From assembly GCA_964468795.1 (NCBI GenBank), contig CAYXWL010000001.1, positions 232,246 through 296,245 of the forward strand: a DNA stretch of 64,000 nt, written 5' to 3'. The notes under the pieces were generated by a model, which saw nothing but the letters and a program-made list of their open reading frames with translations, made no database searches and was not told the origin of the DNA. The position numbers were made by a program, and so were the translations under genes. The DNA is from an uncultured Candidatus Saccharibacteria bacterium. Lineage in GTDB: Bacteria > Patescibacteriota > Minisyncoccia > Phycocordibacterales > DATDWN01. Positions 39,880 through 63,965 of the stretch are shown piece by piece; within the stretch, counting starts at the first letter, position 1; each line of letters opens with the position of its first letter.

Positions 39880-39965
39880 AGTGGATGATTTCTATAAATT
39901 AGCATATTTCTTGAAAAATAGAAATTGAAAGGTATTACAAAGGCCGGAGAATAAATCTCCGGCCT

Positions 39966-40175
39966 TCATGCAGCATCCTTCTTGCGAAGGGTGTAGGTGC
40001 CGGTCTTGGCGTCATGCGATAAAACTTCATATCGCCTTCCGCATATTGCACAGGAGAATTCTTTTCTAAAGCCAGAAGCAAGAACTGGCAAAAGTTTCCC
40101 TTTGCACCATAACTCCTTGCCACCTTTGAGAATTTTCCCCGTGCACAGCTCGCTAGCGGTAGTCGTGTTCGACAT
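39966..40175 (-). CDS. GC-rich small Cys-containing ORF (start at MSNTTTASELCTGK), low confidence
   Basis: CTGK..C..CAICGRRY zinc-ribbon-like; GC-rich patch adjacent to tRNA-Ile. Confidence 0.3.
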   Translation of the reverse strand: MSNTTTASELCTGKILKGGKELWCKGKLLPVLASGFRKEFSCAICGRRYEVLSHDAKTGTYTLRKKDAA

Positions 40176-40383
40176 GGCCAAGCTGTCTGAAAACTCCGGC
40201 ATCAGCCCCGATACGCATGAGCTCCGCCTCGCAAACCTCCGGATCGCCATTTACGCGATCTTTCAGCCTGCTGAGCACAGCATCTACCAGTGCAACTTTC
40301 GGATCCTGTGCTCCGTTCTTTCGACAAATCTGGTCCCTGATCCCCGCCCCCAGACTTTCAACCATGTGATGCGAGACCATTTG
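40153..40383 (-). CDS. GC-rich small ORF (start at MVSHHMVES, AGGAGGAG SD)
   Basis: Strong SD, overlaps downstream small ORF by 23 nt. Confidence 0.35.
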   Translation of the reverse strand, partial: QMVSHHMVESLGAGIRDQICRKNGAQDPKVALVDAVLSRLKDRVNGDPEVCEAELMRIGADAGVFRQLGHVEHDYR

Positions 40384-40429
40384 GCTCCTCCTGTCCTGCA
40401 TTCTACAACAAATGGAAATAAATTCAATA

Positions 40430-42367
40430 CTAGGCTTGATGCTCAATGTCCAGCTTCTGCTTTGGAGTAACTCCATGAGCTACAAGTATATTTTCAAATT
40501 CTGCCCTCTCAATTGTTTCGACTTCCATAAGCCTTCTTGCAATTGCTTCTAGCAAATTCATGTTTTGAGAAATAGTAGCCTCGGCTCTCTGCATTGCTTC
40601 GTTCATTATCCGAGAAACTTCTCCATCAACTTCGGCCGCTACCCTTTCAGATATTTCTGTTTCTTCAACACCTCTGCCAAATAAAACTTTTCCTCCTTGG
40701 CCCTCAAGAGCAATAGGTCCGAGCTTATCTGACATTCCGTATTTTGTAACCATGTCTCTAGCTAAAGCTGTCGAAACCTGCAAATCATTTGATGGGCCAG
40801 TAGTCAGATCGCCAAACTTCATTTTTTCAGTAACATATCCGCCAAGCGAAACAACAATATCATCCAAAAATTCCTTCTTTGACTGTAGCTTTTTATCCTC
40901 CAGTGGAAGATGCAGAACGTATCCCGCTGCCCTGCCTCGGGAAATGATAGAAATCTTGTGAACAGGATCTGCATACGAAAGAAGCGACGCTAGGACTGCA
41001 TGGCCAGCTTCGTGATAAGCAGTAATCTCTTTTTCCTTCTTTGAAAGCACATGGCTCTTTCTCTCTGGACCGAGCATAACTTTTTCAATAGAGCGTATAA
41101 GATCGTACTGAGAAACTTTTGTCCTATTTTCTCGCGCAGCCAAGATAGCTCCTTCATTCATGAGAGAATAAAGATCTGCTCCGGAAAAACCCGGCGTTCT
41201 TTCAGCAATAACTTTCAAATTAACATCTTCGGCAAAAGGCTTTCTGTTGCTGTGGACTTTAAGTATCTCTTCTCTGTCTTTCCTATCTGGAAGTTCAAGA
41301 GTTACCCTCCTATCAAACCTGCCTGGTCGCAAAAGAGCAGGGTCTAGAACGTCTGGCCTGTTCGTTGCCGCCATGACAATCACCTTTTCATTCGGCTCGA
41401 AGCCATCCATCTCAACCAAGATCTGATTTAAAGTCTGTTCTCGCTCATCGTTTCCTCCTCCAGCACCAACTCCTCGCACTCGTCCAACCGCATCTATTTC
41501 ATCCACGAAAATAATGGACGGAGAATTCCTCTTTGCCATTGTAAACAAATCTCGCACTCGAGAAGCACCGACTCCGACAAACATCTCGACGAATTCCGAA
41601 CCGGAAATGGAGAAGAAAGCTACCCCCGCCTCACCAGCAACTGCTCTGGCCAGCAAAGTTTTTCCAGTTCCAGGTGCACCCATGAGCAATATTCCTTTTG
41701 GAATTCGAGCACCAATGTCCAAAAACTTCCTCGGGTTTCGAAGAAAATCTACAATTTCAGTCAATTCTTCTTTTGCTTCTTTTGCACCTGCAACATCCTT
41801 GAAGGTTACTCTCTGATTTTTGTCATTTGGATCAATCATCCTAGCCTTCGATTGTCCAAAAGTTAAAGCCTGCATGCCCGCTCCCTTTACCTGCCTTGTA
41901 ATGAACCAGATGAAAACCAAAATGAAAAGTATCGGGAAAATAATCGGAGAAAGATTTATAAACCAGTATCCAAGCCCCGTCTCGTTTTTTATATCAACCT
42001 CGATTGCTGACAACTGCTCTTTTGTAACTCCATAGTTCACCAGCGTCTGTGAAAGTGCTTCGCCAGCTTCTTTCTTTGACGTTTTCTTGTCGCCCGACTT
42101 GTATTCTATATCCAAGCTTTCGCCTCTGACTACGATATTTTTTACAAGACCGCCTTTGATGTCAGAAGATAGAGTAGAGATAGGTATGTCTACTGTCTTA
42201 TCGTTTTTTAAGCCAGTCAAAGCTGAGTAAGCGAAAGAAAGTATGAGAAAAATGGCCAAAACAGAAACTACGTATCCGATAATAGAATTATCCTCCGGGC
42301 CCTTGCCTCCCTTTGGTCTTTTCTTGATTATTATTTTTGTTTTTTCTGGCTGTTCTGGTTTGTTCAT
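40430..42367 (-). CDS. ftsH: ATP-dependent zinc metalloprotease FtsH
   Basis: Walker A GPPGTGKT-like ([13 protein letters not shown]), SRH, HEAGHAV zinc motif; start at MNKPEQ. Confidence 0.9.
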
Positions 42368-42492
42368 AGCTACGCACAGTATACATGAAAGCATACAAAA
42401 TAAAAGATGAAGATTAATGGAATAGACATGAAGAGTCATCCTCCTAAATTTGCCTTTTTATGTTAGTCTGTGGTTCTGCTACAATAAAACAG

Positions 42493-42936
42493 ATGTCGCT
42501 TATCACCAACCGAAAAGCCGGCTTTAATTACGAATTCCTAGAAAAATATACTGCAGGTATAGAGCTTTTTGGTTATGAAGTAAAATCGTTGAAAGAAAGC
42601 CATGGGTCTATCGAGGGTGCGCACATAACAGTGAGGGGTGGTGAAGCCTTTATTGTGGGCATGTTTATACCACCATACCAGCAAAACAACACACCAAAAG
42701 ATTACGACCCTTACAGAACTCGAAGATTACTTCTCAATAAAGAAGAAATCGTAAAAATAGCTAAAACCGAAGCCACAAAAGGCTTGACAATTGTCCCTAT
42801 TTCGGTGTATAATAGTAATGGTAAAATTAAGCTCGAGATAGCAGAAGTGCGTGGAAAGAAAAAGTTCGACAAAAGAGAGACTCTGAAGAAAAAGGATTCT
42901 CTCCGCGATGTTGCACGAGAGCTTAAAGATCGATAG
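42493..42936 (+). CDS. smpB: SsrA-binding protein SmpB
   Basis: NRKAGFNYEFLEKYTAGIELFGYEVKSLK conserved SmpB N-terminus; followed by tmRNA. Confidence 0.85.
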   Translation: MSLITNRKAGFNYEFLEKYTAGIELFGYEVKSLKESHGSIEGAHITVRGGEAFIVGMFIPPYQQNNTPKDYDPYRTRRLLLNKEEIVKIAKTEATKGLTIVPISVYNSNGKIKLEIAEVRGKKKFDKRETLKKKDSLRDVARELKDR

Positions 42937-43015
42937 TTTTTTGAAATCACAAACCTGCCTCAATAAGAGAGATTAAACCTTGTTTGAGGATTTTATTTTT
43001 TAGAGCATACGCAGG

Positions 43016-43125
43016 CTTCTAGCATGGGTTCGTCAAGGTACCCTGCCTTGACGAATAGAAGCCGAGGACCGAGCAAACTTTTCGCAGGAAAAGCGAGCGT
43101 CTCTAAGAAATAAGATCCTCAATAA
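43016..43125 (+). repeat. Structured ~110-nt repeat element, copy 1 (long hairpin CUUCUA..UUCGUCAAGG-uacccug-CCUUGACGAA..UAGAAG)
   Basis: About 70 nt nearly identical plus ~40 nt similar to inverted copy at 51600-51737. Confidence 0.5.
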
Positions 43126-43146
43126 AAAGGTTTATACTTCCCTATT

Positions 43147-43536
43147 GGGGATGACAGGTTTTGACATAAGGACGACATTGATTCGTGCAATGCGGAGCTT
43201 CGATAACTCCTGAAACTGTCGAAAACAATAAGTGTAAAAAACTTATCTAAGGGCATTGCGTCTCCTTTTGGAAACGCATTCGCTTTCTCACCAGCACTAG
43301 CATAAGCTAACTCGGTAAGACGGTCATTTCCATGATACCTCTATATGGAAAATGATTGATATAAAACGAGGTTAGGATAAAAGACTGTTCCGACTCTTGT
43401 CCGAAAAATAGGAACTCGATCACAATGTATTTTGTTTGTTCCAAGCATTGTGGTTTAACACACTAAACAATCTACGCACTGTAGAAACGCTTCAATTCTC
43501 TTTATGGACGTGGTTTCGATACCACCATCTCCACAA
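43147..43536 (+). ncRNA. ssrA: tmRNA (ssrA)
   Basis: 5' GGGGAUGACAGGUUUUGACAUAAGGACG (tmRNA 5' consensus GGGG.UGA..GG.UUCGAC..GGA), 3' tRNA-like T-arm GUGGUUUCGAUACCAC + acceptor CAUCUCC; candidate tag reading frame ..GNAFAFSPALA-stop (tentative). Confidence 0.75.
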
Positions 43537-43594
43537 AAAAACAGAACGCCATTTATGGCATTCATCAAAAAACTCCCGTTCGGGAGTTTTTTGA

Positions 43595-44158
43595 TTAGTT
43601 AAAATTTACGTAACTTGGCTTCTGCAAAAGCGAAGCGTCTTTTGCCCATGGGTGGCAGATCCAGCTTGCGCTGTTTGTCCCTGACCCTAATACAGTTCCG
43701 TTTGTGAAATCCTTTGGAACGATTGCAGGGAAATCTGAAATTGATTTTGGCACTGAAAGAGTTCCTGTGCCTCGTCCTTCAGTCCAAATATACATATATC
43801 GTCCGTCATAGACCATGATATTTGATGATCCCCCCAAAGTCCTAAACTCCCCTCTCATTTTTCCATCAGCAAAGAAAATTGTATTTGTCGTTCGCTTTGA
43901 TGGCGTAACCTCTTCGTATGTACATTCATAACTTCCCTTCTGCGGGAAAATATTTGTAAATACATCTGTCTTTACCGTATTTGCAACTTTTGCAGAATTC
44001 TTTTTTTGCTGTGAGTTATTTACAGCTGACTTAGAAGTTGAAGTGCTTGTGGAAGGATAGTTTGTCTCGTTTGATCGAGGCAAGAGTGCAAATACCACAA
44101 GGATGACCCCGACGGCGATGGCAGCTCCATATACCCACATTGGGTGTTTTAATTTCAT
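43595..44158 (-). CDS. Secreted hypothetical protein
   Basis: N-terminal TM/signal, 187 aa. Confidence 0.45.
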   Translation of the reverse strand: MKLKHPMWVYGAAIAVGVILVVFALLPRSNETNYPSTSTSTSKSAVNNSQQKKNSAKVANTVKTDVFTNIFPQKGSYECTYEEVTPSKRTTNTIFFADGKMRGEFRTLGGSSNIMVYDGRYMYIWTEGRGTGTLSVPKSISDFPAIVPKDFTNGTVLGSGTNSASWICHPWAKDASLLQKPSYVNFN

Positions 44159-44237
44159 CTTATTTTAAAAATAATCTAATAGTATATTAATTATAAGGAC
44201 ATGCCTTTATAAAAACAACAAGTCCTGATATACTTAG

Positions 44238-44888
44238 GTGGATAAAAAAATGAAAAAAACTCTTGCTCTCATATTGGTCATACTGGTTGCATCACTCGGC
44301 TACTTTTATTTTATAAAAAAGGAAAAAGCTCCTGCCCCTAGCAACACAAAGACATATAGGAACAGCACGCTCGGCCTATCTTTCATCTACCCCAACATGC
44401 TAACAGCAAGCACTACTGGGTCTTCCGTCGTAGTGCACCACGAAGTTCCGTTCGAGCATCCTGATTACTGTGATTTTCGTGGAGACAATGCCGGCACACA
44501 GAAAAATCTTACTGATTTCAATATTGCTATCAGTCTTTCTGACAAGGATATTGTTGAAACAATAAAACAAAAAAGCCCATATATATCTCCGGAAAACTTC
44601 GTGAATGGAAAAGTAGTAACATCTCCCGGCTTTATTGACGAAGTTGTGATTGGCAATCTTTCCGGATACAAAATAATTGAGGGTGTAGAAGGTTGTGGTC
44701 ATACCACTTACTTTTTCAAAATATCCGACAACAAAACTCTTGTGGTTGTGAGCGATATGATAACCATATTTACAGGCGCTATCCCAGAAGAAACAGCAAG
44801 CAGGGCCAAGGCTGTACCAGGCATTATTACAAGCGAGGAGGCAGACCAGATACTGAAATCTATTATTAGCACATTAAAGGCCAGCTAG
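44238..44888 (+). CDS. Secreted hypothetical protein (YRNSTLGLSFIYP family paralog)
   Basis: Signal/TM then motif shared with 9577..10134 and 46129..47100. Confidence 0.45.
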   Translation: MDKKMKKTLALILVILVASLGYFYFIKKEKAPAPSNTKTYRNSTLGLSFIYPNMLTASTTGSSVVVHHEVPFEHPDYCDFRGDNAGTQKNLTDFNIAISLSDKDIVETIKQKSPYISPENFVNGKVVTSPGFIDEVVIGNLSGYKIIEGVEGCGHTTYFFKISDNKTLVVVSDMITIFTGAIPEETASRAKAVPGIITSEEADQILKSIISTLKAS

Positions 44889-44950
44889 CTTTGCAAAATC
44901 CATAAAATGTGCTATATTTTTACTACTTTTAGAAGTTATCAATAAATTAT

Positions 44951-45460
44951 TTGTCACAAAGCATACGAATAAACAACCAGATAACAGCGCCTGAACTTCG
45001 GGTGATTATGGAAAACGGCGATAATCTTGGTGTCCTCTCCTTTAGAGAAGCTCTGGATAAGGCCAGGGAGGCTGGTTTGGACCTCATAGAGATATCGCCA
45101 AAGGCCATGCCTCCAGTTGCAAAAATCATGGATTATGGTAAATTTCAGTATGCTGAAAACAAGAAGCTAAAAGTGGCTAAAACCAAGGCCAAAAACGTAG
45201 AAGTTAAGAACATTCAAATCAAAGTAGGCACCGGAGACCACGATCTTGAACTCAAGGCTAAAAAAGCCTCAGAATGGCTAAAGGAAGGAAACAGGATAAA
45301 AATTGACCTATTTCTACCCGGCCGAGCTAAGTTTATGGATATTAAATTCTTGGAAGAAAGGATGTCTAGGGTACTTAAGCTGATTACAGAAGAATTCAAA
45401 ATAGCAGACCCAGCCAAAAAGTCACCAAAAGGCCTTAGCATTATTATTGAGAAAGCCTAG
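44951..45460 (+). CDS. infC: Translation initiation factor IF-3
   Basis: ITAPELRVI..GDNLGVLSFREALDKAREAGLDLIEISPKAMPPVAKIMDYGKFQY conserved IF3 N/C domains. Confidence 0.85.
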   Translation: MSQSIRINNQITAPELRVIMENGDNLGVLSFREALDKAREAGLDLIEISPKAMPPVAKIMDYGKFQYAENKKLKVAKTKAKNVEVKNIQIKVGTGDHDLELKAKKASEWLKEGNRIKIDLFLPGRAKFMDIKFLEERMSRVLKLITEEFKIADPAKKSPKGLSIIIEKA

Positions 45461-45478
45461 AGCGGTAAGGAAAATAAC

Positions 45479-45664
45479 ATGTCAACAAAAACAAACAAAT
45501 CATTCACAAAGAGACTGAAAGTCAGCAAGAATGGCAAAATAAAGGCCCGAAAGACTGGTCAGAACCATTTTAACGCAAAGGAGTCTCGACGATCACAGCT
45601 TTCAAAGAAGAAGGATGTTAATTTCCCTATTAGCAACAAGGACCGAGCTTTTTATATAAAGTAA
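45479..45664 (+). CDS. rpmI: 50S ribosomal protein L35
   Basis: KTNKSFTKRLKVSKNGKIKARKTGQNH; infC-rpmI-rplT order. Confidence 0.8.
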   Translation: MSTKTNKSFTKRLKVSKNGKIKARKTGQNHFNAKESRRSQLSKKKDVNFPISNKDRAFYIK

Positions 45665-45745
45665 AGCATAGAGAAATAAGAAAAGAGGTATGAAGAATTC
45701 AAATTCATAACTCAAATCTCAAATCACATAATTCAAATCAAAATC

Positions 45746-46096
45746 ATGACAAGAGTAAAGAAAGGAGTAAATGCTCTAAAATCAAGAAAGAATATCCTAC
45801 GAAAGACAAAAGGCTTTCGACATGGACGAGGTTCAAAGGAAAGACAGGCAATGGACGCCTTGCTTCACGCTGGTGCATATGCATTTGCGCACAGACGAGA
45901 CAAGAAAAGCGATGCTCGAAAGAACTGGAATGTAATGATTTCATATGGAGCAAAGGAGCTTGGAACATCATACTCAAAGCTAATGGGAGCACTAAAGAAG
46001 AAAGGAGTGATGATAGACCGAAAGATCCTCGCGACACTTGTTGCAGAGCATCCAGAAACATTTAAGAAAGTAGTAGCCCTAACATCATCTAAATAA
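45746..46096 (+). CDS. rplT: 50S ribosomal protein L20
   Basis: MTRVKKGVNALKSRKNILRKTKGFRHGR. Confidence 0.85.
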   Translation: MTRVKKGVNALKSRKNILRKTKGFRHGRGSKERQAMDALLHAGAYAFAHRRDKKSDARKNWNVMISYGAKELGTSYSKLMGALKKKGVMIDRKILATLVAEHPETFKKVVALTSSK

Positions 46097-46128
46097 CTAA
46101 AAACTCCGGAGATTACCGGAGTTTTTAG

Positions 46129-47100
46129 TTATTTAATGAATTTTATAGCATTAAAATTACACATAGTTTTATCTCCCCCATCTATAAGTCGAGGTAGGAC
46201 TGTACCACTTAATGCTTGTTCATATAATTCATTTGCCGCGATCCTATCAGGTGTATTGATAATAATTTTTTCAATATTATCAATTATCTTATCTGCTTCT
46301 TCATTTGATCTAATATAACGAAGACAATTCCATAAGTTAACTTCAGCTATAATGTTTTTAACTTGCTTCTGTTGTGACAAACCATCCTTTAAACTTTTTT
46401 CTCTGGTAGCAACATATGACTTTATAGCAGTAATGGTGGATTCATCTTTGTAATTATCTAGAATGTACTGCTGAATATCTGAAGTTGTGGAGTTTAGGAA
46501 TTTAAAGGTTGAAAGAATTTTATAGGCTTCCTCTGTCATTACAGAAAAGCTAAACATTTTACCTGCATTTGAGGTTCTATATACATCATAACTATACATA
46601 CCAGCCATGTTATAAACATTAAAATCTACACCGTTTATTTTGGTGGTAGAAGTAGAAAGTATATAATCATATTTTGAACTATCCCTATTATCAAAAATCA
46701 TATCTACACTAACTCCATCTCCAGCAAACTCACCTTTTCTCCAAAAATCATATCTCTCTTTTGATGTAAAACTAATTTTTCCTTCGTCCACACCAACCTC
46801 TTCAACAACCCAGTCTGGAGGCATTTTTAACTCAAATCCATACTCCTCGTTGCGATATGTTTTCCATCCAGAGTGTTTATCCTGTACTTCCACCTGCTTT
46901 TCAAAAGACTTTCCTAATTTGTAGCTTTCGTATGCCTTGTATTTAAAATAACCTGCCAGAGAAAGTCCGATTAAAATTAGAACTCCGCAAAACATCAAAA
47001 ACCAAGGAGTAAAATTTTTCTTTGGATCAGTTTCAAAAAAATTAAAGGGTGGTTTAGGGACAGGAGTCTGTGGAATTTGATTTTGCTCTTGTGGTTCCAT
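46129..47100 (-). CDS. Membrane-anchored hypothetical protein (WKTYRNEEYGF family paralog)
   Basis: Start at MEPQEQ, one TM helix, shared motif with two other ORFs. Confidence 0.45.
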   Translation of the reverse strand: MEPQEQNQIPQTPVPKPPFNFFETDPKKNFTPWFLMFCGVLILIGLSLAGYFKYKAYESYKLGKSFEKQVEVQDKHSGWKTYRNEEYGFELKMPPDWVVEEVGVDEGKISFTSKERYDFWRKGEFAGDGVSVDMIFDNRDSSKYDYILSTSTTKINGVDFNVYNMAGMYSYDVYRTSNAGKMFSFSVMTEEAYKILSTFKFLNSTTSDIQQYILDNYKDESTITAIKSYVATREKSLKDGLSQQKQVKNIIAEVNLWNCLRYIRSNEEADKIIDNIEKIIINTPDRIAANELYEQALSGTVLPRLIDGGDKTMCNFNAIKFIK

Positions 47101-51497: not shown

Positions 51498-51599
51498 GAA
51501 TAAAGTATACCAGATTTAACTCACATATGAATCATTTGCATACCAAAACCCCATTATAACTTTTTAGAAACAAAAAATTTCCCAACGGGAAATTTTTCT

Positions 51600-51737
51600 C
51601 TCTCCTTACAGGAGCAGTACACCTTTCGCAAAGTTTTGCTCAAGATCTTGCGAAGCAATAATATTGCTTCTCACCTCGGCTTCTATTCGTCAAGGCATGG
51701 TACCTTGACGAAACCATGCTAGAAGCCTGCGTATGTT
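51600..51737 (-). repeat. Structured repeat element, copy 2 (secY-adk intergenic)
   Basis: Reverse complement aligns with 43016-43125 (core ~70 nt with 3 substitutions). Confidence 0.5.
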
Positions 51738-51758
51738 CTAAAAAGTTATAATGGGGTT

Positions 51759-53030
51759 TTAGTACTCGCGGATTGAAACCTGAGCGTCTATTTTCTTGAT
51801 CAGATCGATTACCACAGATACCACAATAAGGAGAGCTGTACCACCTACAGAAACAGCTGTAATTCCTGTAAAACCTCTGATAATGAGAGGAAGAACAGCA
51901 ATGAATCCTAGGAAGATGGCGCCTACCAAAGTCAATCGAGTAAGTATTCGTGAAATATGATCTGCTGTAGATTTTCCAGGTCGTACTCCAGGTATGAATG
52001 CTCCGTTTTTCTGAAGATTGGTAGAGATCTGATCTGGATCAAATGTAACTGCTGTATAGAAGTATGTGAAGATAAACACAAGCAGGAAGTATGCTATTCC
52101 GTAGAACCAGCCATTTGCCAAAATTGCTAGGATTTTTGAAGAGACTGTCTGGATCCATGCATGGCTTGAATTCTGCAAGAACCTTAGAATCATCTGAGGG
52201 AACAAAAGGATAGATAGAGCAAAGATGATTGGAATTACACCTGCTTGATTGATTCGTAGAGGAAGGTATGTAGATGTTCCTCCGTAAACTCTGTTTCCCC
52301 TTACCTGCTTTGCGTATGTTATAGGGATTGGCCTTTCAGCTTCTGTAATGACAACCACTCCAACAATAACTAAAGTGGCAATGACAATGAAAGCCAAGTA
52401 AACTGGAAGCTGAGCTGTGCTAAATGAGAATGCCAGCTGTCCTGCAGCAGATGGAAGAGCTGCTACGATACCTGAAAAGATGATAAGGCTTATTCCGTTT
52501 CCAATTCCATATTCAGTGATAAGCTCTCCGATCCACATAAGCAGAACTGAACCCGCGGTGATAACTAAAAGGTTTGTCGTAAGCTGAAGTCCTGACAAAT
52601 GAGTAATGACTCCCTGATTCTCCAAAAGTTTTATAAAGCTGAAAGCCTGTAAAAGCGCTAGAGGAACTGTAATCATTCGTCCGTACTGGGCAAATTTTCT
52701 CCTGCCCACCTCCCCGTCTTCCTGATACATTTCTTTTAGCTTTGGAGAAAGTATAGTCAAAAGTTGCATGATGATAGAACCTGTAATATAAGGTCCTACT
52801 CCAAGCATCACGATAGAAAGCTGTGAAAGGCCTCCTCCTGAGAAAATATTTAGCAATCCTAGAAATTCGTTGCTAGAAAAAAATTGTGCAAGCCTTCCAT
52901 GATCAACTCCTGGAACAGGAACAGATGCCAGCACTCGGAACAGTGCCAAAGCAAAAAGTGTAAAAAGTATTCGCTTTCGCAGGATGCTGTCCTGGAAAAC
53001 GAGTTTGAATTTGTTCATGAAGTTGCTCAT
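51759..53030 (-). CDS. secY: Preprotein translocase subunit SecY
   Basis: 10 TM helices, conserved SecY segments. Confidence 0.9.
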   Translation of the reverse strand: MSNFMNKFKLVFQDSILRKRILFTLFALALFRVLASVPVPGVDHGRLAQFFSSNEFLGLLNIFSGGGLSQLSIVMLGVGPYITGSIIMQLLTILSPKLKEMYQEDGEVGRRKFAQYGRMITVPLALLQAFSFIKLLENQGVITHLSGLQLTTNLLVITAGSVLLMWIGELITEYGIGNGISLIIFSGIVAALPSAAGQLAFSFSTAQLPVYLAFIVIATLVIVGVVVITEAERPIPITYAKQVRGNRVYGGTSTYLPLRINQAGVIPIIFALSILLFPQMILRFLQNSSHAWIQTVSSKILAILANGWFYGIAYFLLVFIFTYFYTAVTFDPDQISTNLQKNGAFIPGVRPGKSTADHISRILTRLTLVGAIFLGFIAVLPLIIRGFTGITAVSVGGTALLIVVSVVIDLIKKIDAQVSIREY

Positions 53031-55387: not shown

Positions 55388-55463
55388 GTGTATTTATGAT
55401 ATCTGGACAGTATCTCTCATCTAGCGACTTGAGACTTGTCCGGACGTCTTCTGTGCTAGCAGA

Positions 55464-55649: not shown

Positions 55650-55717
55650 TGTTATTAAAAAAGCTTTTTCAAGCTCAAACTACACTATCAAAACTCGTGT
55701 ATAAAGTCAAACAAAAT

Positions 55718-55750
55718 GCCCGGGTCTCCTTTCGGAGACCCGGGCACAGA
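55718..55750 (-). terminator. Strong hairpin terminator (GCCCGGGUCUCC-UUUC-GGAGACCCGGGC) downstream of inserted gene 55756..56412
   Basis: Perfect 12-bp GC stem. Confidence 0.5.
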
Positions 55751-55755
55751 CAGAA

Positions 55756-56412
55756 CTACAAGCCCACACGAAGTACGAGTCTTGCTTCTTCGAGCTTGTG
55801 CCGAGCAGGACCATTCCCAAACTTCTCGACCTGCTCCTCGAGGTTCATGCCTGTGTTAAATGACATGACGAATGGGACATTCAGACGGGAATCCCGTTCG
55901 ACAATGTACCGGAAGGCATTGTCGAAGGTCTCGCGAGAGATCTGATTCGCACTAATCTTGGTGATCTTAAAAGCAACTTCCGCCAAGATATTACGAAGCT
56001 CATAGTCTGTTCCTGTAAATGCAGGCACCAGATCCTTGCGCTTGGAAAAAGTGAAGGTCTGATCTACCCACACTTGCGGTCGCGTTGTTTTGTATTTTGC
56101 GACCATTCCGGGTTCAGACAAATTATCCTGAATATACCGGTAAGCATCAAGAGCTTCGACAAATGCTGAGTAGAGGGTAATTGCTGTAACCCCCTTCACC
56201 TCATTCATAACGAAGAGTGGATTATGCTCGCAAGCATATCGGAACATGCGCTTCTCGAAAAGATTTTCACGCCATCTTCGAGGAAGACGACGCAAATACC
56301 TGATCCCTTTCGGAACCGCCCACATCACGGAAAGGAACAGCCCCGTGCTCCAGAAGAGCAGACCGAAGTAAATAACAAGCCAGCCAGCCCTGTACAAGTT
56401 GTAAAGGTCCAT
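55756..56412 (-). CDS. GC-rich inserted ORF between rplE and rpsN: N-terminal TM helix + soluble domain (hypothetical)
   Basis: 218 aa; compositionally distinct from flanking r-protein genes; own terminator. Confidence 0.5.
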   Translation of the reverse strand: MDLYNLYRAGWLVIYFGLLFWSTGLFLSVMWAVPKGIRYLRRLPRRWRENLFEKRMFRYACEHNPLFVMNEVKGVTAITLYSAFVEALDAYRYIQDNLSEPGMVAKYKTTRPQVWVDQTFTFSKRKDLVPAFTGTDYELRNILAEVAFKITKISANQISRETFDNAFRYIVERDSRLNVPFVMSFNTGMNLEEQVEKFGNGPARHKLEEARLVLRVGL

Positions 56413-56700
56413 ACTGCCTCCATCTGTACCAATCCTAGTCCTACGCTCCTCAAAATGAGGAGTGTGGCTGGTAGTACAGATTTGTAATATATTATATCAC
56501 TATTTGTACTGTAGTGTCAATATATCCCTGATAAAGAAAAAACTCCATTTATGGAGTTTTTTCTTTACACGAGTTTGTCGTTCTGAGGATTTTTGCTAGA
56601 GTTCGAGGTGGGAGTGCGGATTGCGACCAAGCTGTACAAGTAGTATTGCGCGGGAGCAAACGCAAGCGACAAACAAAGAAATCGAGCAAAAAGACCAGAA

Positions 56701-57234: not shown

Positions 57235-57244
57235 GACAGTTTTA

Positions 57245-57463: not shown

Positions 57464-57473
57464 ATTAGTTTTG

Positions 57474-57851
57474 TTATACAACTTCTGGTGCAAGTGAGAT
57501 TATTTTTTGGTATCCAACATCTCCAATCTCTCGTGGAATAGGACCGAATACTCTTCCCGCAACTGGCTCCTTCTTCTTTTTATCTTTCATTACTATAACA
57601 ACTGCGTTTTCATCAAATCGTACGTATGATCCGTCTTTTCTTCTGAAAGGAGCCTTTTGTCGTACAACTATTGCTCGCACAACATCCTTCTTCTTTGTTG
57701 TCTTTCGAGGCTCTGCCTTTTGTATTGAAATAACTACAAGCTCGCCGATAGATGCGTATCGCTTCTTTGATGAGCCAAGCACCTTGAATACTCGTCCGAT
57801 CTTTGCTCCGGAGTTGTCAGCTATTTTAACGATTGATCGTGGTTGTATCAT
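57474..57851 (-). CDS. rplN: 50S ribosomal protein L14
   Basis: MIQPRSIVKIADNSGAK. Confidence 0.9.
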   Translation of the reverse strand: MIQPRSIVKIADNSGAKIGRVFKVLGSSKKRYASIGELVVISIQKAEPRKTTKKKDVVRAIVVRQKAPFRRKDGSYVRFDENAVVIVMKDKKKKEPVAGRVFGPIPREIGDVGYQKIISLAPEVV

Positions 57852-57861
57852 GGCTTTTAAA

Positions 57862-58113
57862 TTATGCTATTACTTTAAATCTCTTATCCTTTGAGATAGG
57901 TGCGCACTCTTCGATAACCACCTTGTCTCCTATCTTCTTTGTATTTCCAGCATCATGTGCCTTTATCTTCTTGTCTATTGAAATGTACTTGTCGTACTTT
58001 GGATGCTTTACAAATCGAGAAACAAGAACAACAACCGTGTCCTTCATTTTGTCTGAAGTCACTGTTCCTTTCATTGTCTTTCGTGATTTCTTTGTTTCTG
58101 TTGTCTTGTTCAT
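57862..58113 (-). CDS. rpsQ: 30S ribosomal protein S17
   Basis: KGTVTSDKMKDTVVVLVSRFVKHPKY. Confidence 0.85.
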   Translation of the reverse strand: MNKTTETKKSRKTMKGTVTSDKMKDTVVVLVSRFVKHPKYDKYISIDKKIKAHDAGNTKKIGDKVVIEECAPISKDKRFKVIA

Positions 58114-58123
58114 GGTTTATAAA

Positions 58124-58309
58124 TTATTTTGCTCGGTTGATTACTGTTAGGATCTGAGCGATATCCTTTCTTAGTGCCTTTCCCTCCTTTACGTTTCTGG
58201 CATTGCTTCCGCTTACTTGGAATCGGAAAGCTGAAAGAGCTTGTCGTTTCTCAGACAACATTGTATTTAACTCTTTTATGCTCTTGTTTGCAAGGTCTTT
58301 CATTTTCAT
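58124..58309 (-). CDS. rpmC: 50S ribosomal protein L29
   Basis: 61 aa, ELNTMLSEKRQALSAFRFQ. Confidence 0.8.
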   Translation of the reverse strand: MKMKDLANKSIKELNTMLSEKRQALSAFRFQVSGSNARNVKEGKALRKDIAQILTVINRAK

Positions 58310-58318
58310 AGCTTTTTA

Positions 58319-58744
58319 TTATGCGTGTACAGATGAAACAATCTTTGTCTTCAAAGGAAGCTTTGTTCCAGCTTTTCGAAGAGCCTCCTTTGCAACTGCC
58401 TCTGACACTCCGTCTACCTCGAACAAAACTCGTCCAGGCTTTACTGGTGCGCAATATCCAAACAGGTCTCCCTTACCTTTTCCAAGCTTTACTTCAGCAG
58501 GCTTTTTTGTAAGAGGCATGTCTGGGAAAATTCGAATCCACACTCTTCCAGTCTTTCCAACCTCTCGTGAAAGGGCCTTTCGAGCAGCTTCTATCTGGTT
58601 AGACATGATTCTTGCGCCCTGCATAGCCTTTAGACCATGTGAGCCGAAAGCAACTGTTGCACCTCGAGTAGCCACGCCGACTTTCTCTGCGTTCTTTCTC
58701 ATTGTATGCCACTTTCTGTATTTTACTTTCTTAGGTAACAGCAT
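58319..58744 (-). CDS. rplP: 50S ribosomal protein L16
   Basis: [18 protein letters not shown]-like. Confidence 0.9.
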
Positions 58745-58754
58745 GGTAGTTTAA

Positions 58755-59411
58755 TTACTTATTGAAAATATCTCCCTTGTATATCCAGACCTTTACGCCG
58801 ATTGTTCCGTATGGAAGTCGTGCTTCGTACTTTGTAAAATCAACATCAGCTCTGAATGTCTGAAGAGGAATTCGTCCTCGCTTCATTTTTTCCTGTCGTG
58901 CCATTGTTGCTCCTCCAAGTCGTCCTGAAAGTTCTATTTTTACTCCCTGAACATCTCGGTTAGCCATAACCTTTTCCATAACCTGCTTTGCAACTCGTCT
59001 GAAAGGAAGTCGCTTTTCAAGACCGTCAGCGATCATCTGAGCAACGATAGTTGAGTTTGATTCCGGAGACTTAACCTCCTTTATATCAACCTTGACTTCG
59101 CCTCCCATTGAAAGCTTGTTCTTTGTTAGGAACGCAATGATGTCGTTCTTTAGCTTTACAGCTCCGTCTCCAGATCGGCCGATAATTACTCCAGGTCTTG
59201 AAGTTTCGATAATGATTCGAAGAACCTTCTCTCCTCTTTCCATCTCGATATTGCTTACATACATTCCTCGGAATCTCTTCTCCAAGTACTGTCGCAAAAG
59301 TACATCGCTCTTTAGGAATTCTTTGTACTTATTCTTTACGCCGAACCATCGAGATTTCCAATCTCTTATGATGCCTAGCCTATGTGAATATGGATGGACT
59401 GTATGTGTCAT
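58755..59411 (-). CDS. rpsC: 30S ribosomal protein S3
   Basis: KH domain and C-terminal S3 domain, 218 aa. Confidence 0.9.
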   Translation of the reverse strand: MTHTVHPYSHRLGIIRDWKSRWFGVKNKYKEFLKSDVLLRQYLEKRFRGMYVSNIEMERGEKVLRIIIETSRPGVIIGRSGDGAVKLKNDIIAFLTKNKLSMGGEVKVDIKEVKSPESNSTIVAQMIADGLEKRLPFRRVAKQVMEKVMANRDVQGVKIELSGRLGGATMARQEKMKRGRIPLQTFRADVDFTKYEARLPYGTIGVKVWIYKGDIFNK

Positions 59412-59434
59412 AAATTTAGTTTGAAAGTTAAAAG

Positions 59435-59854
59435 TTATTTAGTTTTTTTAGTAACCCTTGTCTTTTTTGCTACAGTTGTTTCCTCTACTTCCTTTTTAAC
59501 TTTCGACTTTCTACTTGTTACTTCTTTTGTTCCAAGCTCAATGTAAACAGAGCTTGTTCTCTTTCGAATAGGATGAGATGAGCCTCGTGCTGCAGGTCGT
59601 CGTCGGTAGATTATAGCACCGCCATCTACTTTTATAGTTTTAATTATCAAATCCTCAGTTGGAATCTCTAGTGCCTTTGCGTTAGCAAGAGCCGAAAGGA
59701 TAAGGTTCTTTATAGGAGCTGCAGCTCTCTTTGCAACGAAATCCAAGTTGATAAGAGCCTCCTCAACCTTCTTTCCTCGTACAGAATTAGCAACCAATCG
59801 CATTTTTCGAGGTGCCTGTCTGAAATTTGAAAGTGTAGCTTTTGCTGTTGCCAT
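59435..59854 (-). CDS. rplV: 50S ribosomal protein L22 (with K-rich C-terminal tail)
   Basis: Conserved L22 core; between S19 and S3. Confidence 0.85.
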   Translation of the reverse strand: MATAKATLSNFRQAPRKMRLVANSVRGKKVEEALINLDFVAKRAAAPIKNLILSALANAKALEIPTEDLIIKTIKVDGGAIIYRRRPAARGSSHPIRKRTSSVYIELGTKEVTSRKSKVKKEVEETTVAKKTRVTKKTK

Positions 59855-59871
59855 GGTAGTTCAATAAAAAA

Positions 59872-60210
59872 TTATTTCTTATCTGCTGTAGTTTTAGCAG
59901 CCTGTGCAGCAGAAATTTCAGCCTCTTTCTTCTTCTGCTCTAGCTCCTTCTGCATCTTTCCTCCGTGCTTTATGAATTTCTTTGTTGGAGAAAATTCGCC
60001 TAGTCTGTGGCCTACCATATCTTCTGCCACCAAAACTTCTAGGTGAGTCTTTCCGTTGTGCACTCCGAATGTAAAGCCGATCATCTCTGGAGAGATAACA
60101 CATGCTCTTGACCATGTCTTAATAACCCCTGTCTCTAGAGGCTTCTTTCCTTCAATTTTCTTGAGCAATCGCTCGTCCACGTATGGACCTTTTTTTGATG
60201 ATCGTGTCAT
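59872..60210 (-). CDS. rpsS: 30S ribosomal protein S19
   Basis: [20 protein letters not shown]; extended C-tail. Confidence 0.9.
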
Positions 60211-60368
60211 TTTTGTCTATTTTAATTCCCTCGCCATTTGGCAAGAAGAAAACCACTCAGTAAATTTAAATCGCGTGGTACTGACTTACTTAATAATTCA
60301 AAAAGAATGTAAATACCTCAGTGGCGTCTATACTATACAAAATGCTTAAATATGTCAACAACAAAGCT

Positions 60369-60395
60369 AAAGGGCGGAATACTCCGCCCTTTCCA
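60369..60395. terminator. Hairpin terminator (GGGCGGAAUACUCCGCCC) flanking the inserted Zn-ribbon gene
   Basis: aaagggcggaatactccgccctttcc. Confidence 0.5.
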
Positions 60396-60400
60396 CCTCT

Positions 60401-60646
60401 CTAGGTGGGATCATAAATCCTTACAAGTGCAGTACACCGCGTACAATGCACCTCGCCTAGCCTAGTTACTGGATCTACATTTACTATCTTGTGCTCTTGA
60501 GGAGTAGACGAGCATACGGGACAGTTCTTTCCATCAATCGGAATGGCCTGCGTACCGAACTCTGTTCTCCATATGGCAACAAACCCAGCTTCACCAACTG
60601 CTCTTGCAAGAGCTTCGAGCATCCTGCCTCTCTTGGTTTCTTCCAT
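60401..60646 (-). CDS. GC-rich inserted zinc-ribbon small protein between rplB and rpsS
   Basis: 81 aa, CPVC..CTRC, GGAGG SD; compositionally distinct. Confidence 0.5.
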   Translation of the reverse strand: MEETKRGRMLEALARAVGEAGFVAIWRTEFGTQAIPIDGKNCPVCSSTPQEHKIVNVDPVTRLGEVHCTRCTALVRIYDPT

Positions 60647-60832
60647 GATTCCTCCGATTATTAATTTAATTCTATTATGGAAATAAAGTCAAAGGCCATC
60701 TTGCATTCGTAAAACTTCCCAATTTGGGTGAGATACGACGGGAGAAAACAAAAAATGCACCGAGGTGTACATATAGTACATTGAGGTGCATTTTTGGTTT
60801 TTGGACCGAGTAGGTCGCCAAATTTGGAAGTT

Positions 60833-61675
60833 TTACTTGTTCTTTCCAACTCGTCGTCGTGACACAATAAATTTGTTTGAATACTTCTTTGGAGTTCGTG
60901 TCTTCTGTCCCTTTCCTGTTGGCTTTCCGTAAACTGAGATTGCTCGTCTTCGTCCTCTTCCTTGTCGTCCTTCTCCTCCTCCGTGTGGGTGATCCACTGG
61001 GTTCTGAGCTGTTCCCTTTACTGTAGGCCTGATACCCAACCATCGTGATCGTCCGGCCTTTCCTAGGTTTACTAGTCGGTTCTCATCGTTTGATACATCA
61101 CCGATAGATGCCCACGCAGTATCTTTTACCTTTCGAACTTCTGTTGAAGGGAGCTTTAGGTCAACATATCCGTTGTCCTTTGAAATAACTTCAACATAGT
61201 TTCCGGCAGATCGAGCAAGCTTTGCTCCACCGTTCGGTTTTAGTTCAACGTTGTATACAAATGTACCAATGTTGATGTTTTTTAGAGGAAGTCTGTTTCC
61301 AGGCTTCTGCTCTGCATTCTCACCTGTAACTAGAACATCTCCAACTCGTACTGCCTTTGGAAGAAGAACATATCGCTTCTCTCCGTCGTGATACTGAGCA
61401 AGACCGATAAATCCTGTTCTGTTTGGATCATACTCAACTGTCTTGATAGTGTAAGGAATATTTATTTTGTCGTATCGAAAATCAACAGCTCGGAAAAGTC
61501 TCTTGTGGCCACCTCCCTTATGTCGCGTTGTGATGATGCCTGAGTTGTTTCGGCCCATGTCTCGCTTGTAGCCATGTGTCAAAGACTTTACAGGTTCTGA
61601 TGCAGTAATGAAGTTGCCATATGAGATGGTCGTCATTCCTCGTCGTGATTTTGATGTTGGTCGGTATCGCTTCAT
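60833..61675 (-). CDS. rplB: 50S ribosomal protein L2
   Basis: HKGGGHKRLFR and C-terminal GGEGRQGRG-rich region. Confidence 0.9.
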   Translation of the reverse strand: MKRYRPTSKSRRGMTTISYGNFITASEPVKSLTHGYKRDMGRNNSGIITTRHKGGGHKRLFRAVDFRYDKINIPYTIKTVEYDPNRTGFIGLAQYHDGEKRYVLLPKAVRVGDVLVTGENAEQKPGNRLPLKNINIGTFVYNVELKPNGGAKLARSAGNYVEVISKDNGYVDLKLPSTEVRKVKDTAWASIGDVSNDENRLVNLGKAGRSRWLGIRPTVKGTAQNPVDHPHGGGEGRQGRGRRRAISVYGKPTGKGQKTRTPKKYSNKFIVSRRRVGKNK

Positions 61676-61684
61676 GTGTTTGTA

Positions 61685-61966
61685 TTAGATGACTTCTACC
61701 TTCTCCCCCTTCTTAAGGTATACATATGCCTTCTTGTAACCAGACTTTACACCTCGCTTGCCTCGAACAAAAACATTCTTTGCAGGAATTGTGACTGTTG
61801 AGATCTTGACCGGAGTTGCCTTGTACTTCTCTACGAATGCCTTTCGAATAGCCTGCTTTGTTGCATCCTTTGATACCTCGAATACATACACTGAAGACTC
61901 GGACTTCAAAGCTGCTTTTTCCGTTATGTGTGGCTTTACTAAAAATGTTGCAAGGTCTTTTCTCAT
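61685..61966 (-). CDS. rplW: 50S ribosomal protein L23
   Basis: 93 aa, conserved position between L4 and L2. Confidence 0.85.
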   Translation of the reverse strand: MRKDLATFLVKPHITEKAALKSESSVYVFEVSKDATKQAIRKAFVEKYKATPVKISTVTIPAKNVFVRGKRGVKSGYKKAYVYLKKGEKVEVI

Positions 61967-61976
61967 ATTGATTTAA

Positions 61977-62642
61977 TTACTTTGAAAGCTTCGTTGCTAT
62001 CTGAGGGAGACCCTTCTCAGGGTTTGAGATAACGACGTACTTGTACTTCATAAGGTCGACCGGATTCATGTTTCGGATCTCATCTACGACAAGATTGCCG
62101 AAATTTCGAAGACTCTTCTCAGTGTTCGCATCCTTGCTTGAAAGAGCGATCAATGCTGAGTTCTTTCGCTTGCTGACGAGGTCAGTAAAGCCCTTTACTT
62201 TTGCGAGTGTAGACAGAGCTACCTTTGCATCCTTTGTCTTTGGAGCCTTAAATGAAATATCATCAACAAAGAGCACCTTCCCATCCTTGTACTTTGCAGA
62301 CAAGATAGTATAGAGGGCCTTAGCCTTCATCTTCTTGTTTACCTTTCGAGTATAGTCCTTGTCGTTTCGAGGGCCATGTGTAATACCTCCGTGTCGCCAG
62401 AGTGGAGATCGTGTAGAACCGTGTCGCGCTCGGCCTGTTCCTTTCTGCTGCCATGGCTTCTTTCCTCCTCCAGATACTTCTCCTCGAGTCTTTGTGTGAG
62501 CAACGTTTGTTCTGCTTGATGATTCCATTGAAACAACAACCTGGTGCACCAAGTCAGCATTCCAAGGTAGTCCGAAAACAGACTCAGGTAGCTTTACTTT
62601 TCCTGCCTCCTTTCCTTGTAGATTGTAGATTACGCTTTCCAT
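61977..62642 (-). CDS. rplD: 50S ribosomal protein L4
   Basis: GGGKKPWQQKGTGRARHGS. Confidence 0.9.
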   Translation of the reverse strand: MESVIYNLQGKEAGKVKLPESVFGLPWNADLVHQVVVSMESSSRTNVAHTKTRGEVSGGGKKPWQQKGTGRARHGSTRSPLWRHGGITHGPRNDKDYTRKVNKKMKAKALYTILSAKYKDGKVLFVDDISFKAPKTKDAKVALSTLAKVKGFTDLVSKRKNSALIALSSKDANTEKSLRNFGNLVVDEIRNMNPVDLMKYKYVVISNPEKGLPQIATKLSK

Positions 62643-62656
62643 AGTTATGTATTTAA

Positions 62657-63268
62657 TTAGCCTCGCACTTCTACGACTGTTCCTCGTCGTCCTGGAACTG
62701 CACCTCGGATAAAGAGTTCTCCTGTCTCCTTGTTTATTGAAACAATAGTGAGATTCTTTGTGGTGATCTTCACCCCTCCCATTCGGCCGGCCATTCTCTT
62801 TCCTTTAGCAACTCGGCCTCCGTCTCGTCCAGCACCTCCAATAGATCCTGGCTCTCGCTCTGAGTGCTTCTGACCGTGCGATCGTGGTCCTCCTGCGAAA
62901 CCATGTCGCTTAACCACACCCTGGAATCCCTTTCCCTTTGAGATGCTTGAAACTGTTACCTTGTCTCCAGCAGCAAAAGCAGATAGGTCAACCTTGTCTC
63001 CAAGATTAAGGGTAGAGTCACCTTCAACTCGCATCTCCTTTAGATGAGCGAACTTTCCCTCTTTCATGTGGCCAGAAAGCGCCTTGTTGATGTTCTTAGC
63101 AGAACGAGTACCGAAACCAAACTGCACAGCAGAATAGCCATCTTTTGCAGATGTCTTCACCTGAGTCACTGTCATTGGACCAGCCTTAACGACAGTTACA
63201 GGATGCACAACTCCCTCAGCATCGAAGATCTGAGTCATGTTTACTTTTGTTCCGAGGATGAATTTCAT
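62657..63268 (-). CDS. rplC: 50S ribosomal protein L3
   Basis: MKFILGTKVNMTQIF..GFAGGPRSHG. Confidence 0.9.
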   Translation of the reverse strand: MKFILGTKVNMTQIFDAEGVVHPVTVVKAGPMTVTQVKTSAKDGYSAVQFGFGTRSAKNINKALSGHMKEGKFAHLKEMRVEGDSTLNLGDKVDLSAFAAGDKVTVSSISKGKGFQGVVKRHGFAGGPRSHGQKHSEREPGSIGGAGRDGGRVAKGKRMAGRMGGVKITTKNLTIVSINKETGELFIRGAVPGRRGTVVEVRG

Positions 63269-63454
63269 TGTATTTCTGGTGACGGTTTGCGGACAGTAAT
63301 GCGAGGAGAATCCTCACAACATTGCTCTTTACTAGCCACCCATTTAAAAAAGCCTTTTCGGCGTTTGCCTACTGTAGCAGATATCGTTTTTTATTTCAAG
63401 TGCTATTTGACTCAATCTGTAAAAATCTATATTGTTCTGCCAGAGGTATCGAAC

Positions 63455-63730
63455 ATGCTTGGTAATCTGTTCTTTTGGAGCTACCTTCTTTTGGGAGCTC
63501 TCATGGCTCTCGTATGCTTCTTTATCCTAAGAGATGACTTTGCCCTCCAAGAGGAGCTGGAAACGATCCGGGCTTCCAGCCTCATTGCCGGATTCAGCTT
63601 CGTTCTGGCAGGCCTTGCAATTGCATTCTGGCTCCGAAATCTAGCCTCCTTTACAGTTTGGGGGTCCGCTACCGCATGCTACTGGATGCATATCTTGCTT
63701 GTACTCAGAGCACGGGCATCGAAAAAATAA
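63455..63730 (+). CDS. GC-rich small membrane protein gene upstream of rplC (where rpsJ would normally sit)
   Basis: 91 aa, two or three TM helices; followed by two hairpin terminators (63744-63762, 63778-63802). Confidence 0.4.
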   Translation: MLGNLFFWSYLLLGALMALVCFFILRDDFALQEELETIRASSLIAGFSFVLAGLAIAFWLRNLASFTVWGSATACYWMHILLVLRARASKK

Positions 63731-63965
63731 ACGTTACTCAATCGTCCGGAACGCCCGGACGATTTCTCGTACAATAAAACCACCGAGAATGGTGGTTTTT
63801 TGATTAGATTATCTTTACGTCGATGTTGACTCCTGACGGAAGCGATGCTTATACACACGTTCTCTATCTAAGGCAGTGTCACATAACGTCAATTGACATT
63901 TATAAGTAAATAGAGTATAATTATAAAAGATAAAATTTCGATCTTTCTCAAGAAAGGAGAGAAGG

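Follow-up and report, generated by a model that had tools for sequence, protein, structure and literature searches.

The S10-spc cluster of ribosomal-protein genes has a textbook order that almost never changes, and no other string of bacterial genes is normally as free of interruptions as the S10 and spc operons. How, then, do small open reading frames (ORFs) come to stand inside it? The question is raised by a 64,000-nucleotide stretch of DNA (the window; positions 232,246 to 296,245 of contig CAYXWL010000001.1, assembly GCA_964468795.1, deposited as an uncultured Candidatus Saccharibacteria bacterium), in which a first-pass annotation had marked four places as sites where GC-rich small-ORF cassettes split gene pairs: rplB/rpsS, rplE/rpsN, the region upstream of rplC, and the neighbourhood of a tRNA-Ile gene. 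The small ORFs, Shine-Dalgarno (SD) sites and hairpins were present at all four places as described, including the terminators behind the ORFs of 81 aa in rplB/rpsS (ORF81) and 218 aa in rplE/rpsN (ORF218). Our analysis suggested a reading of its own for these places: it is fairly probable that they are boundaries between transcription units which hold accessory-gene hot spots, and not points in the interior of operons.

The minus-strand order in the window is rplC-rplD-rplW-rplB, ORF81, rpsS to rplE, ORF218, rpsN to rplO, and secY, with no L30 gene. We placed 20 cluster genes by tblastn in 80 related genomes and measured every junction. The rplB/rpsS gap had a median of 1457 bp, reached 9692 bp at most and exceeded 250 bp in 49 of 55 loci and 1 kb in 32; in 9 further loci, rpsS was not found within the approximately 10 kb available downstream of rplB. 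The rplE/rpsN gap (median 202 bp, maximum 2943 bp) exceeded 250 bp in 19 of 41 loci. These two junctions thus vary across orthologous flanks, as expected of a hot spot, while the 17 others were tight, with medians of at most 30 bp and 2 cases above 250 bp in total. The rpsJ/rplC gap measured 168–784 bp in the nearest relatives and was near zero in more distant ones, and the distance from ftsH to tRNA-Ile(UAU) was 0–90 bp in 6 of 17 related contigs and 312–4397 bp in the other 11. Because the gaps vary across relatives, the flagged places are lineage-wide variable spots, not peculiarities of the window genome. The gene pairs had been called otherwise universally contiguous, a description that did not hold, since they are separated in most relatives of this lineage.

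The predicted promoters and terminators around the gaps pointed in the same direction. A sigma-70-type promoter sequence, TTGACA-17-TAtAGT, was found directly before rpsS and rpsN even where the gaps of relatives were 59–120 bp, and such a promoter occurred in essentially all relatives with a spacer of at least about 59 bp, cargo-free ones included. Promoters with at least 10 of 12 consensus matches preceded rpsS in 62% of loci and rpsN in 29%, compared with 0–6% for the other 18 genes. A predicted terminator followed rplB and rplE in most cargo-free relatives too. Since the promoters are kept in relatives with short, cargo-free gaps, rplB/rpsS and rplE/rpsN appear to be old transcription-unit boundaries, and the internal promoters look older than the cargo. 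As listed in Table 1, each insert in the window has its own predicted promoter, SD site, ORF and terminator, those at rplB/rpsS and rplE/rpsN lying between two ribosomal-protein units. The idea that the cassettes ride on a highly transcribed operon was therefore not borne out, as each has a predicted promoter of its own and is bracketed by a predicted terminator on one side and a predicted, conserved internal promoter on the other.

Table 1. Predicted features of the four spacers (positions in the window)
Feature	Position	Strand	Remarks
Very stable 126-nt hairpin	60709..60836	-	begins at rplB stop codon; end of rplC-rplB unit
ORF81 promoter-like site	60663..60692	-	TTGACT-18-TAAATT; 9/12 consensus matches
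ORF81	60401..60646	-	81 aa; orphan; zinc-ribbon-like CPVC...CTRC
ORF81 intrinsic terminator	60369..60392	-	10 pairs, 6 GC; T-rich tail
Internal promoter and conserved rpsS leader	60211..60358	-	promoter TTGACA-17-TAGTAT at 60330-60358
Terminator hairpin closing rpsS-rplE unit	56532..56567	-	perfect 17-nt arms; T-run
ORF218 promoter	56491..56520	-	TTGACA-18-TATAAT with TG; perfect consensus, 12/12
Structured 5' leader of ORF218	56410..56487	-	one long interrupted hairpin ending just before SD
ORF218	55756..56412	-	218 aa; N-terminal transmembrane helix, basic linker, ~150-aa domain
ORF218 GC-rich terminator	55716..55747	-	14 pairs, 10 GC
Internal promoter and short hairpin+U leader of rpsN	55650..55710	-	promoter TTGACT-17-TAGTGT at 55682-55710
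Cassette divergent from rplC	63407..63802	+	promoter-like site 63407-63435; 91-aa ORF 63455-63730; two hairpins
Hairpins after 91-aa ORF	63742-63762 and 63776-63801	+	
Perfect promoter and start of fragmented GC-rich ORF series	63893..64000	+	promoter 63893-63921; start 63966; continues beyond window
Two-ORF cassette between ftsH and tRNA-Ile(UAU)	39938..40391	-	

On this reading, the S10-spc cluster would be cut into separately transcribed blocks, one ending with rplB, one running from rpsS to rplE and one from rpsN to secY, with a terminator after rplB and rplE and a sigma-70-type promoter with its own leader before rpsS and rpsN. DNA inserted between terminator and promoter would leave the expression of the ribosomal proteins undisturbed. 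Bracketed in this way, insertions would not break co-transcription and, being harmless, could have turned the spacers into long-lived accessory-gene hot spots. The rpsJ/rplC and ftsH/tRNA-Ile spacers would act likewise to a lesser degree, and the spacers of the window would carry insulated cassettes consisting of promoter, SD site, ORF and GC-rich terminator. Most economically, accessory genes would gather passively and be exchanged in spacers that tolerate them, probably with the aid of homologous recombination in the conserved genes on either side; cargo would arrive or be swapped with the conserved ribosomal genes as homology arms, and not through a function encoded by the cassettes.

The contents of the gaps in relatives were those of a hot spot, as the cargo was non-homologous between genomes and included toxins, reverse transcriptases and diversity-generating retroelement (DGR) cassettes. 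The gaps held 222 ORFs with a length of 60 aa or more, and 110 of these were singletons. In a more distant subclade, with about 73–75% rplB identity, the rplB/rpsS gap housed rplJ and rplL together with three further conserved genes, one of them for a mechanosensitive-channel-like protein, and the nearest relatives carried, in this gap only, a family of small proteins with a C-terminal AWE[YH] motif (11–12 members; no Pfam match), which is found in four tandem copies in one genome (L017) and has no member in the window. Other gaps held HicA, YafQ/ParE and PemK toxins and pilin-like genes. The DGR cassettes, recognized by a reverse transcriptase (RT) and variable and template repeats (VR/TR), included homologous copies (target gene, TR and RT) at rplE/rpsN in one relative (L018, 14816–17432) and at rplB/rpsS in another (L027, 11950–14737); the copies align in two segments that together span about 2.1 kb, with 69% nucleotide identity. 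In the nearest clade, the G+C content at third codon positions (GC3) of the cargo exceeded that of the ribosomal genes by a median difference of +0.13. The first-pass description of the inserts as a family of selfish cassettes was thus right in that the junctions gather foreign or accessory genes, with undoubted selfish elements in relatives, but the cassettes do not form one family. Its claim of a GC-rich composition held for three of the four places when GC and GC3 were computed; the exception is ORF81, whose GC3 falls within the ribosomal range.

The best-characterized insert is ORF218. A word-indexed search returned only ORF218 itself, but this orphan status was overturned by a full HMMER scan and a profile search, the former yielding 35 clusters at E<=1e-3 among 1.84 billion representatives, with lengths of 154–260 aa and 23–35% identity to the query. 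In the alignment, a hydrophobic helix at the N terminus is followed by a basic linker, and the motifs GVTAVC, PTFTFA, AHTG, VTG and RDxRLxVPF are present. An AlphaFold (AF2) model built with the family alignment reached a predicted local distance difference test (pLDDT) score of 91.3; searches of PDB and BFVD yielded no matching fold, and the protein matched nothing in Pfam, PHROG or PADLOC. ORF218 is a real gene that evolves fast and belongs to an uncharacterised Patescibacteria family, and its domain of about 150 aa may be tethered to the membrane on the cytoplasmic side, given the basic stretch that follows the transmembrane helix.

The leader of ORF218 (Table 1) also appears to be conserved. 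Independent minimum free energy (MFE) folds of the leaders of 7 members from the rplE/rpsN gap gave the same hairpin, and when a covariance model built from 4 leaders was run against 1.4 Mb, its only matches beyond those 4 were 2 further members (E 2e-7 and 1e-4). Compensatory changes were observed in 15 of 24 pairs of the leader alignment, and 84.7% of cells were paired compared with 20–40% when the pairing was slid, in six sequences only and with an alignment fitted to the model. Rfam gave no match at the gathering threshold, and chance-level ones only at E<=1. The hairpin leaves the SD site free, and its role is most likely to stabilise the mRNA or to bind a protein. A second, shorter hairpin with a U-run (55650–55681; consensus CCnAGCUU-loop-AAGCUUUUUU) directly follows the rpsN promoter and is kept in distant relatives. 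Relatives with short gaps have a similar motif in front of rpsS, and two relatives (L019 and L022) carry an identical palindromic insertion of about 40 nt in the loop of the rpsN-leader hairpin.

The distribution of the ORF218 family bears on how it reached its position. In the 11 members for which DNA was fetched, the gene lay between rplE and rpsN in seven lineages and elsewhere in three, where it adjoined unrelated genes. A promoter with 10–12 of 12 matches was found 96–108 nt before the start in 8 of 10 scanned members, two of them outside the operon, and GC-rich inverted repeats were seen by eye after the stop codons of homologues in printed sequences. ORF218 itself has a GC of 0.48 and a GC3 of 0.55, compared with 0.39 and 0.32 for its neighbour rplE, and all 11 members were GC-richer than their neighbours (0.46–0.58 versus 0.30–0.46, a difference of 6–20 points). 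The first-pass annotation had held that conservation of the ORFs at these positions across the lineage, with host-like composition, would argue for lineage-specific ribosomal accessory genes and against insertions; ORF218 homologues do occupy the same position in at least seven lineages, but their occurrence is patchy and their composition never host-like.

These observations would also be compatible with the ORF218 unit being an undescribed, self-contained cassette that circulates horizontally in the Patescibacteria, with the ribosomal genes as universal homology arms across species. Such a cassette would comprise the near-consensus promoter, the covarying leader hairpin of about 60 nt, a membrane-tethered protein of new fold and the GC-rich terminator; it would be 6–20 GC points above every host and would prefer the rplE/rpsN spacer, and its hosts would be symbionts dependent on natural competence, for which the interior of S10-spc would serve as a shared site of exchange between species. 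We regard this extension as unlikely.

Alternatively, ORF218-type cassettes, or every cassette, might be autonomous mobile genes that target ribosomal-gene spacers and copy themselves into these, in the manner of free-standing homing-endonuclease genes. The ORF218 unit does move as one block, with promoter at fixed distance, ORF and GC-rich terminator, appearing both at rplE/rpsN and at unrelated places; its composition is always foreign, and it is patchy among close relatives, being confined to the window species and L014 among 41 genome loci with both rplE and rpsN. We nevertheless judge this improbable. No nuclease, integrase or transposase motif was found in ORF218, and its N-terminal membrane anchor would be odd for a DNA enzyme. 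Pfam scans of the cassette ORFs revealed no transposase, and nothing characteristic of a transposon, insertion sequence or miniature inverted-repeat transposable element was seen; no nuclease domain was detected in Pfam or PHROG and no fold match that would indicate a homing endonuclease; and no mobility gene or recombinase accompanied the cassettes. Integrase families were absent from scans of the cassette ORFs and a few ORFs at 18–32 kb, the window as a whole not having been screened. Target-site duplications and terminal repeats were likewise not convincing, the only direct repeats being of 11–14 nt, probably due to chance and not bracketing the cassettes. There is also no sign of recent spread of ORF218, because its members are so divergent. 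A phage origin was rejected, with no tblastn match in 50,697 phage records, no PHROG match and no BFVD fold match, as was membership of a defence system, with no PADLOC match.

A shared ancestry with the GC-rich element at 18.4–27.8 kb of the window, which the first-pass annotation had proposed on grounds of style, found no backing either: the four cassettes show no DNA or protein similarity to each other or to that region, and neither a recombinase nor flanking direct repeats were found. The region itself (18450–27800) consists of two GC-rich blocks (about 0.50) split by a host-like TrmB-type gene (23653–24393, GC 0.32), and contains a family of palindromic repeats of about 50–100 bp, for example near 18704, 19440, 20117, 22430, 25688, 26170, 26534 and 27172; one ORF of the blocks has a sigma-factor/helix-turn-helix PHROG match. 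Further along, 30849–33231 is a probable DGR, with a GC-rich 311-aa ORF (30849–31784, minus strand), a 118-nt repeat pair of 86% identity (about 30855–30972 versus 32114–32231), an Avd-like 116-aa ORF (32278–32628, minus strand) and an RT-like N-terminus of only 200 aa (32629–33231, plus strand).

In the rplB/rpsS spacer, the hairpin that begins at the rplB stop codon has an MFE of -47.4 kcal/mol (z -6.9) and 19-nt inverted arms, and the first 136 nt or so past the stop, hairpin included, are about 90% identical in L014. A long inverted repeat also starts at the secY stop codon (51541–51764; 29-nt arms 166 nt apart), and the two might represent either small palindromic elements or terminators of unusual length. 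ORF81 is preceded by GGAGG at 60651–60655 and has a GC of 0.48 and a GC3 of 0.41, the ribosomal genes ranging in GC3 from 0.38 to 0.47. Its zinc-ribbon matches in Pfam were weak and below threshold, and no homologue was found in 5.8 billion proteins, related loci or phages, a word-indexed search being among those run. A single-sequence AF2 model (pLDDT 66.5, moderate) showed one helix and beta strands. In L014 the conserved hairpin is followed by a Cys-rich 99-aa ORF, which was considered as a counterpart of ORF81 and rejected, showing no significant similarity to it. The rpsS leader behind the internal promoter (about 100–120 nt, 60211–60329) contains an invariant ACCAC-N-GUGG-U-run hairpin and is a candidate attenuator or ribosomal-protein leader, with no matching family in Rfam; all 12 near relatives compared share the hairpin, UACCAC-N6-GUGGUUUUU followed by a U-run.

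Upstream of rplC, the 91-aa ORF with its two hairpins was present as annotated, but rpsJ, thought to be missing, is only displaced: contig L001, which carries the same DNA and runs beyond the window end, has rpsJ 1641 bp upstream of rplC. The 91-aa ORF lies on the plus strand, and its transcription is hence divergent from that of rplC, which corrects the first-pass annotation. Three hydrophobic helices are apparent by eye, the surrounding GC is about 0.50, and no homologue was found in the related loci of the 80 relatives. The rest of the spacer (GC 0.53–0.58) contains fragmented same-strand ORFs, probably a decaying gene or pseudogene; an alpha/beta-hydrolase reading of the fragments, a visual impression, was dropped as they gave no Pfam match. 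Just beyond the window, the tuf/rpsJ spacer (L001, 4900–5300) shows another GC-rich patch (0.52–0.55), and its length varies in relatives from about 140 to 2000 bp.

Beside tRNA-Ile (anticodon UAU, 39805–39879), the two overlapping small ORFs were recovered as annotated. GAGGAG precedes the 75-aa ORF (40153–40380, minus strand), which is overlapped by 26 nt by a Cys-rich 70-aa ORF (39966–40178, minus strand) whose stop codon is spanned by the terminator hairpin. Their GC is 0.52–0.55 and their GC3 0.57–0.59, and no homologue of the pair was found in 80 ftsH loci. The small sizes and the overlap would fit a toxin-antitoxin pair; no Pfam, PADLOC or PHROG match was obtained. Of 22 related contigs scanned, 17 carry a tRNA-Ile(UAU) gene no more than a few kb downstream of ftsH; 12 of these have it on the same strand and 5 have it inverted.

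The lack of homologues for ORF81, the 39966–40380 pair and the 91-aa ORF, together with the host-like GC3 of ORF81 and the fragmented frame in GC-rich DNA of the neighbouring rpsJ/rplC spacer, could mean that these ORFs are chance frames in decaying remnants of past insertions. This is quite improbable, as each has a well-placed SD site, a promoter-like site and a hairpin terminator about 10–25 nt from its stop, CxxC motifs occur as a pair in ORF81, whose single-sequence model is of moderate confidence, and the three hydrophobic helices of the 91-aa ORF look clean. The cassette products might also be lineage-specific accessory proteins associated with the ribosome (as had been proposed) or with translation, their genes being retained in the cluster so that they are co-regulated. 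This found no support and is very improbable: ORF218 homologues hold the rplE/rpsN position in 7 lineages, the AWE[YH] family lies directly after rplB in about 9 genomes, and small zinc-ribbon-like proteins are common among ribosomal proteins, but the cassette genes are separate transcription units by their predicted promoters and terminators, their distribution is patchy or limited to a single species, with many close relatives lacking them, ORF218 relatives also stand beside unrelated genes, sequence evolution is very fast and composition non-host, and ORF81, without homologue, is confined to one species.

Several points weigh against the reading of the four places as hot spots at transcription-unit boundaries. 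The promoters and terminators are consensus matches only, with regional counts of 25 against 20.7 in shuffled sequence, and recombination through the ribosomal genes is a mechanism that we infer. ORF81 could be non-coding, given that an 81-codon ORF at this GC is statistically unremarkable by itself and that it has no homologue. Finally, the GC excess of ORF218 persists in all 11 members at 6–20 points despite 23–35% identity, which makes simple old vertical inheritance unlikely, as it should have erased the excess, while positional conservation is not accounted for by simple recent transfer. The excess might stem from selection, from GC-biased conversion where recombination has a hot spot, or from repeated re-entry of the gene out of GC-rich relatives. 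Composition is host-like, by comparison, in one AWE[YH] member whose genome has 56% GC.

The arrangement belongs to the organism and not to its assembly. The window has a GC of about 39%, and the top rplB matches in 185,579 species genomes were metagenome-assembled genomes of Minisyncoccia, Parcubacteria and Zambryskibacteria with 67–88% identity; the window genome is Paceibacteria/Zambryskibacteria-like. Contigs assembled independently from several samples carry the same DNA at 99.8–100% identity, which speaks against an assembly artefact or chimera; because of this near-identity, strain polymorphism among same-species contigs gave no signal for the ratio of nonsynonymous to synonymous substitutions (dN/dS). 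One strain contig (L003) is only 94.7% identical over 643 bp (L003 1–641) to the rplC region (about 62650–63300 of the window) and 99.9% over most of its length, suggesting a local recombination tract. In a further genome (L181, 3061–3750), a cytidylate-kinase gene has a GC of 0.58 between neighbours of 0.30–0.43; therefore, housekeeping genes too can be compositional outliers in these genomes.

If the hot-spot reading is correct, a branch of the Candidate Phyla Radiation has its S10-spc cluster split at two fixed internal points that serve as landing sites for fast-turnover orphans, toxins and retroelements, and insulation by terminator and internal promoter would explain how an essential, highly expressed locus tolerates insertion. 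Concatenated-marker phylogenies rest largely on this cluster, as does the binning of contigs from uncultured bacteria, and synteny-based assumptions about ribosomal clusters fail in this lineage. The junctions offer easily located places, addressable by polymerase chain reaction, at which the accessory gene pool of unculturable organisms can be sampled, and the ORF218 family with its leader RNA, as well as the conserved rpsS and rpsN leaders, are worth study.

We found no report in the literature of fixed breaks inside S10 and spc in Patescibacteria, and the known systems nearest to the present one each share some of its features. The free-standing homing-endonuclease genes of T4-like phages are likewise small, self-contained, equipped with a promoter and a terminator of their own, wedged between conserved genes, patchy and compositionally odd; the cassette proteins, however, belong to no recognisable endonuclease family, and ORF218 is predicted to be membrane-anchored. 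Integron gene cassettes are likewise small single-ORF units each followed by a hairpin-forming repeat, but the cassettes described here have their own predicted promoters and are single, not arrayed, no IntI was seen, and their hairpins are unrelated in sequence, without an attC-like consensus. The ftsH/tRNA-Ile spacer resembles tRNA-adjacent genomic islets in being variable among relatives, and differs from them in that neither an integrase nor a repeated tRNA 3' end was detected there. A closer parallel is the chromosomal 'hotspot' model that Oliveira, Touchon and Rocha reportedly described in 2017, in which hot spots of horizontal transfer are flanked by core genes. There, as here, a few fixed intervals hold most of the variable genes, and the cargo is genome-specific and includes toxin-antitoxin or mobile functions. 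An integrase is absent from many such hot spots, and homologous recombination of the flanking DNA has been invoked for them. Unlike in those hot spots, the flanks here are adjacent genes inside the S10 and spc operons, and the islets are tiny, often of a single gene.

Insertions into the conserved translation cluster have been documented in Gammaproteobacteria and Bacilli (PMC8046335), where small insertions were followed, in some descendants, by complete separation of both sides (PMC8046335; 2019, PMC6735719), which the authors read as a relaxation, by the insertion, of selection for linkage (2019, PMC6735719). The insertions analysed in detail in those studies lie between operons, for example at rpoBC/str and str/S10 (PMC8046335; PMC6735719), whereas the breaks described here lie inside S10 (rplB/rpsS) and spc (rplE/rpsN) and persist across the whole lineage.

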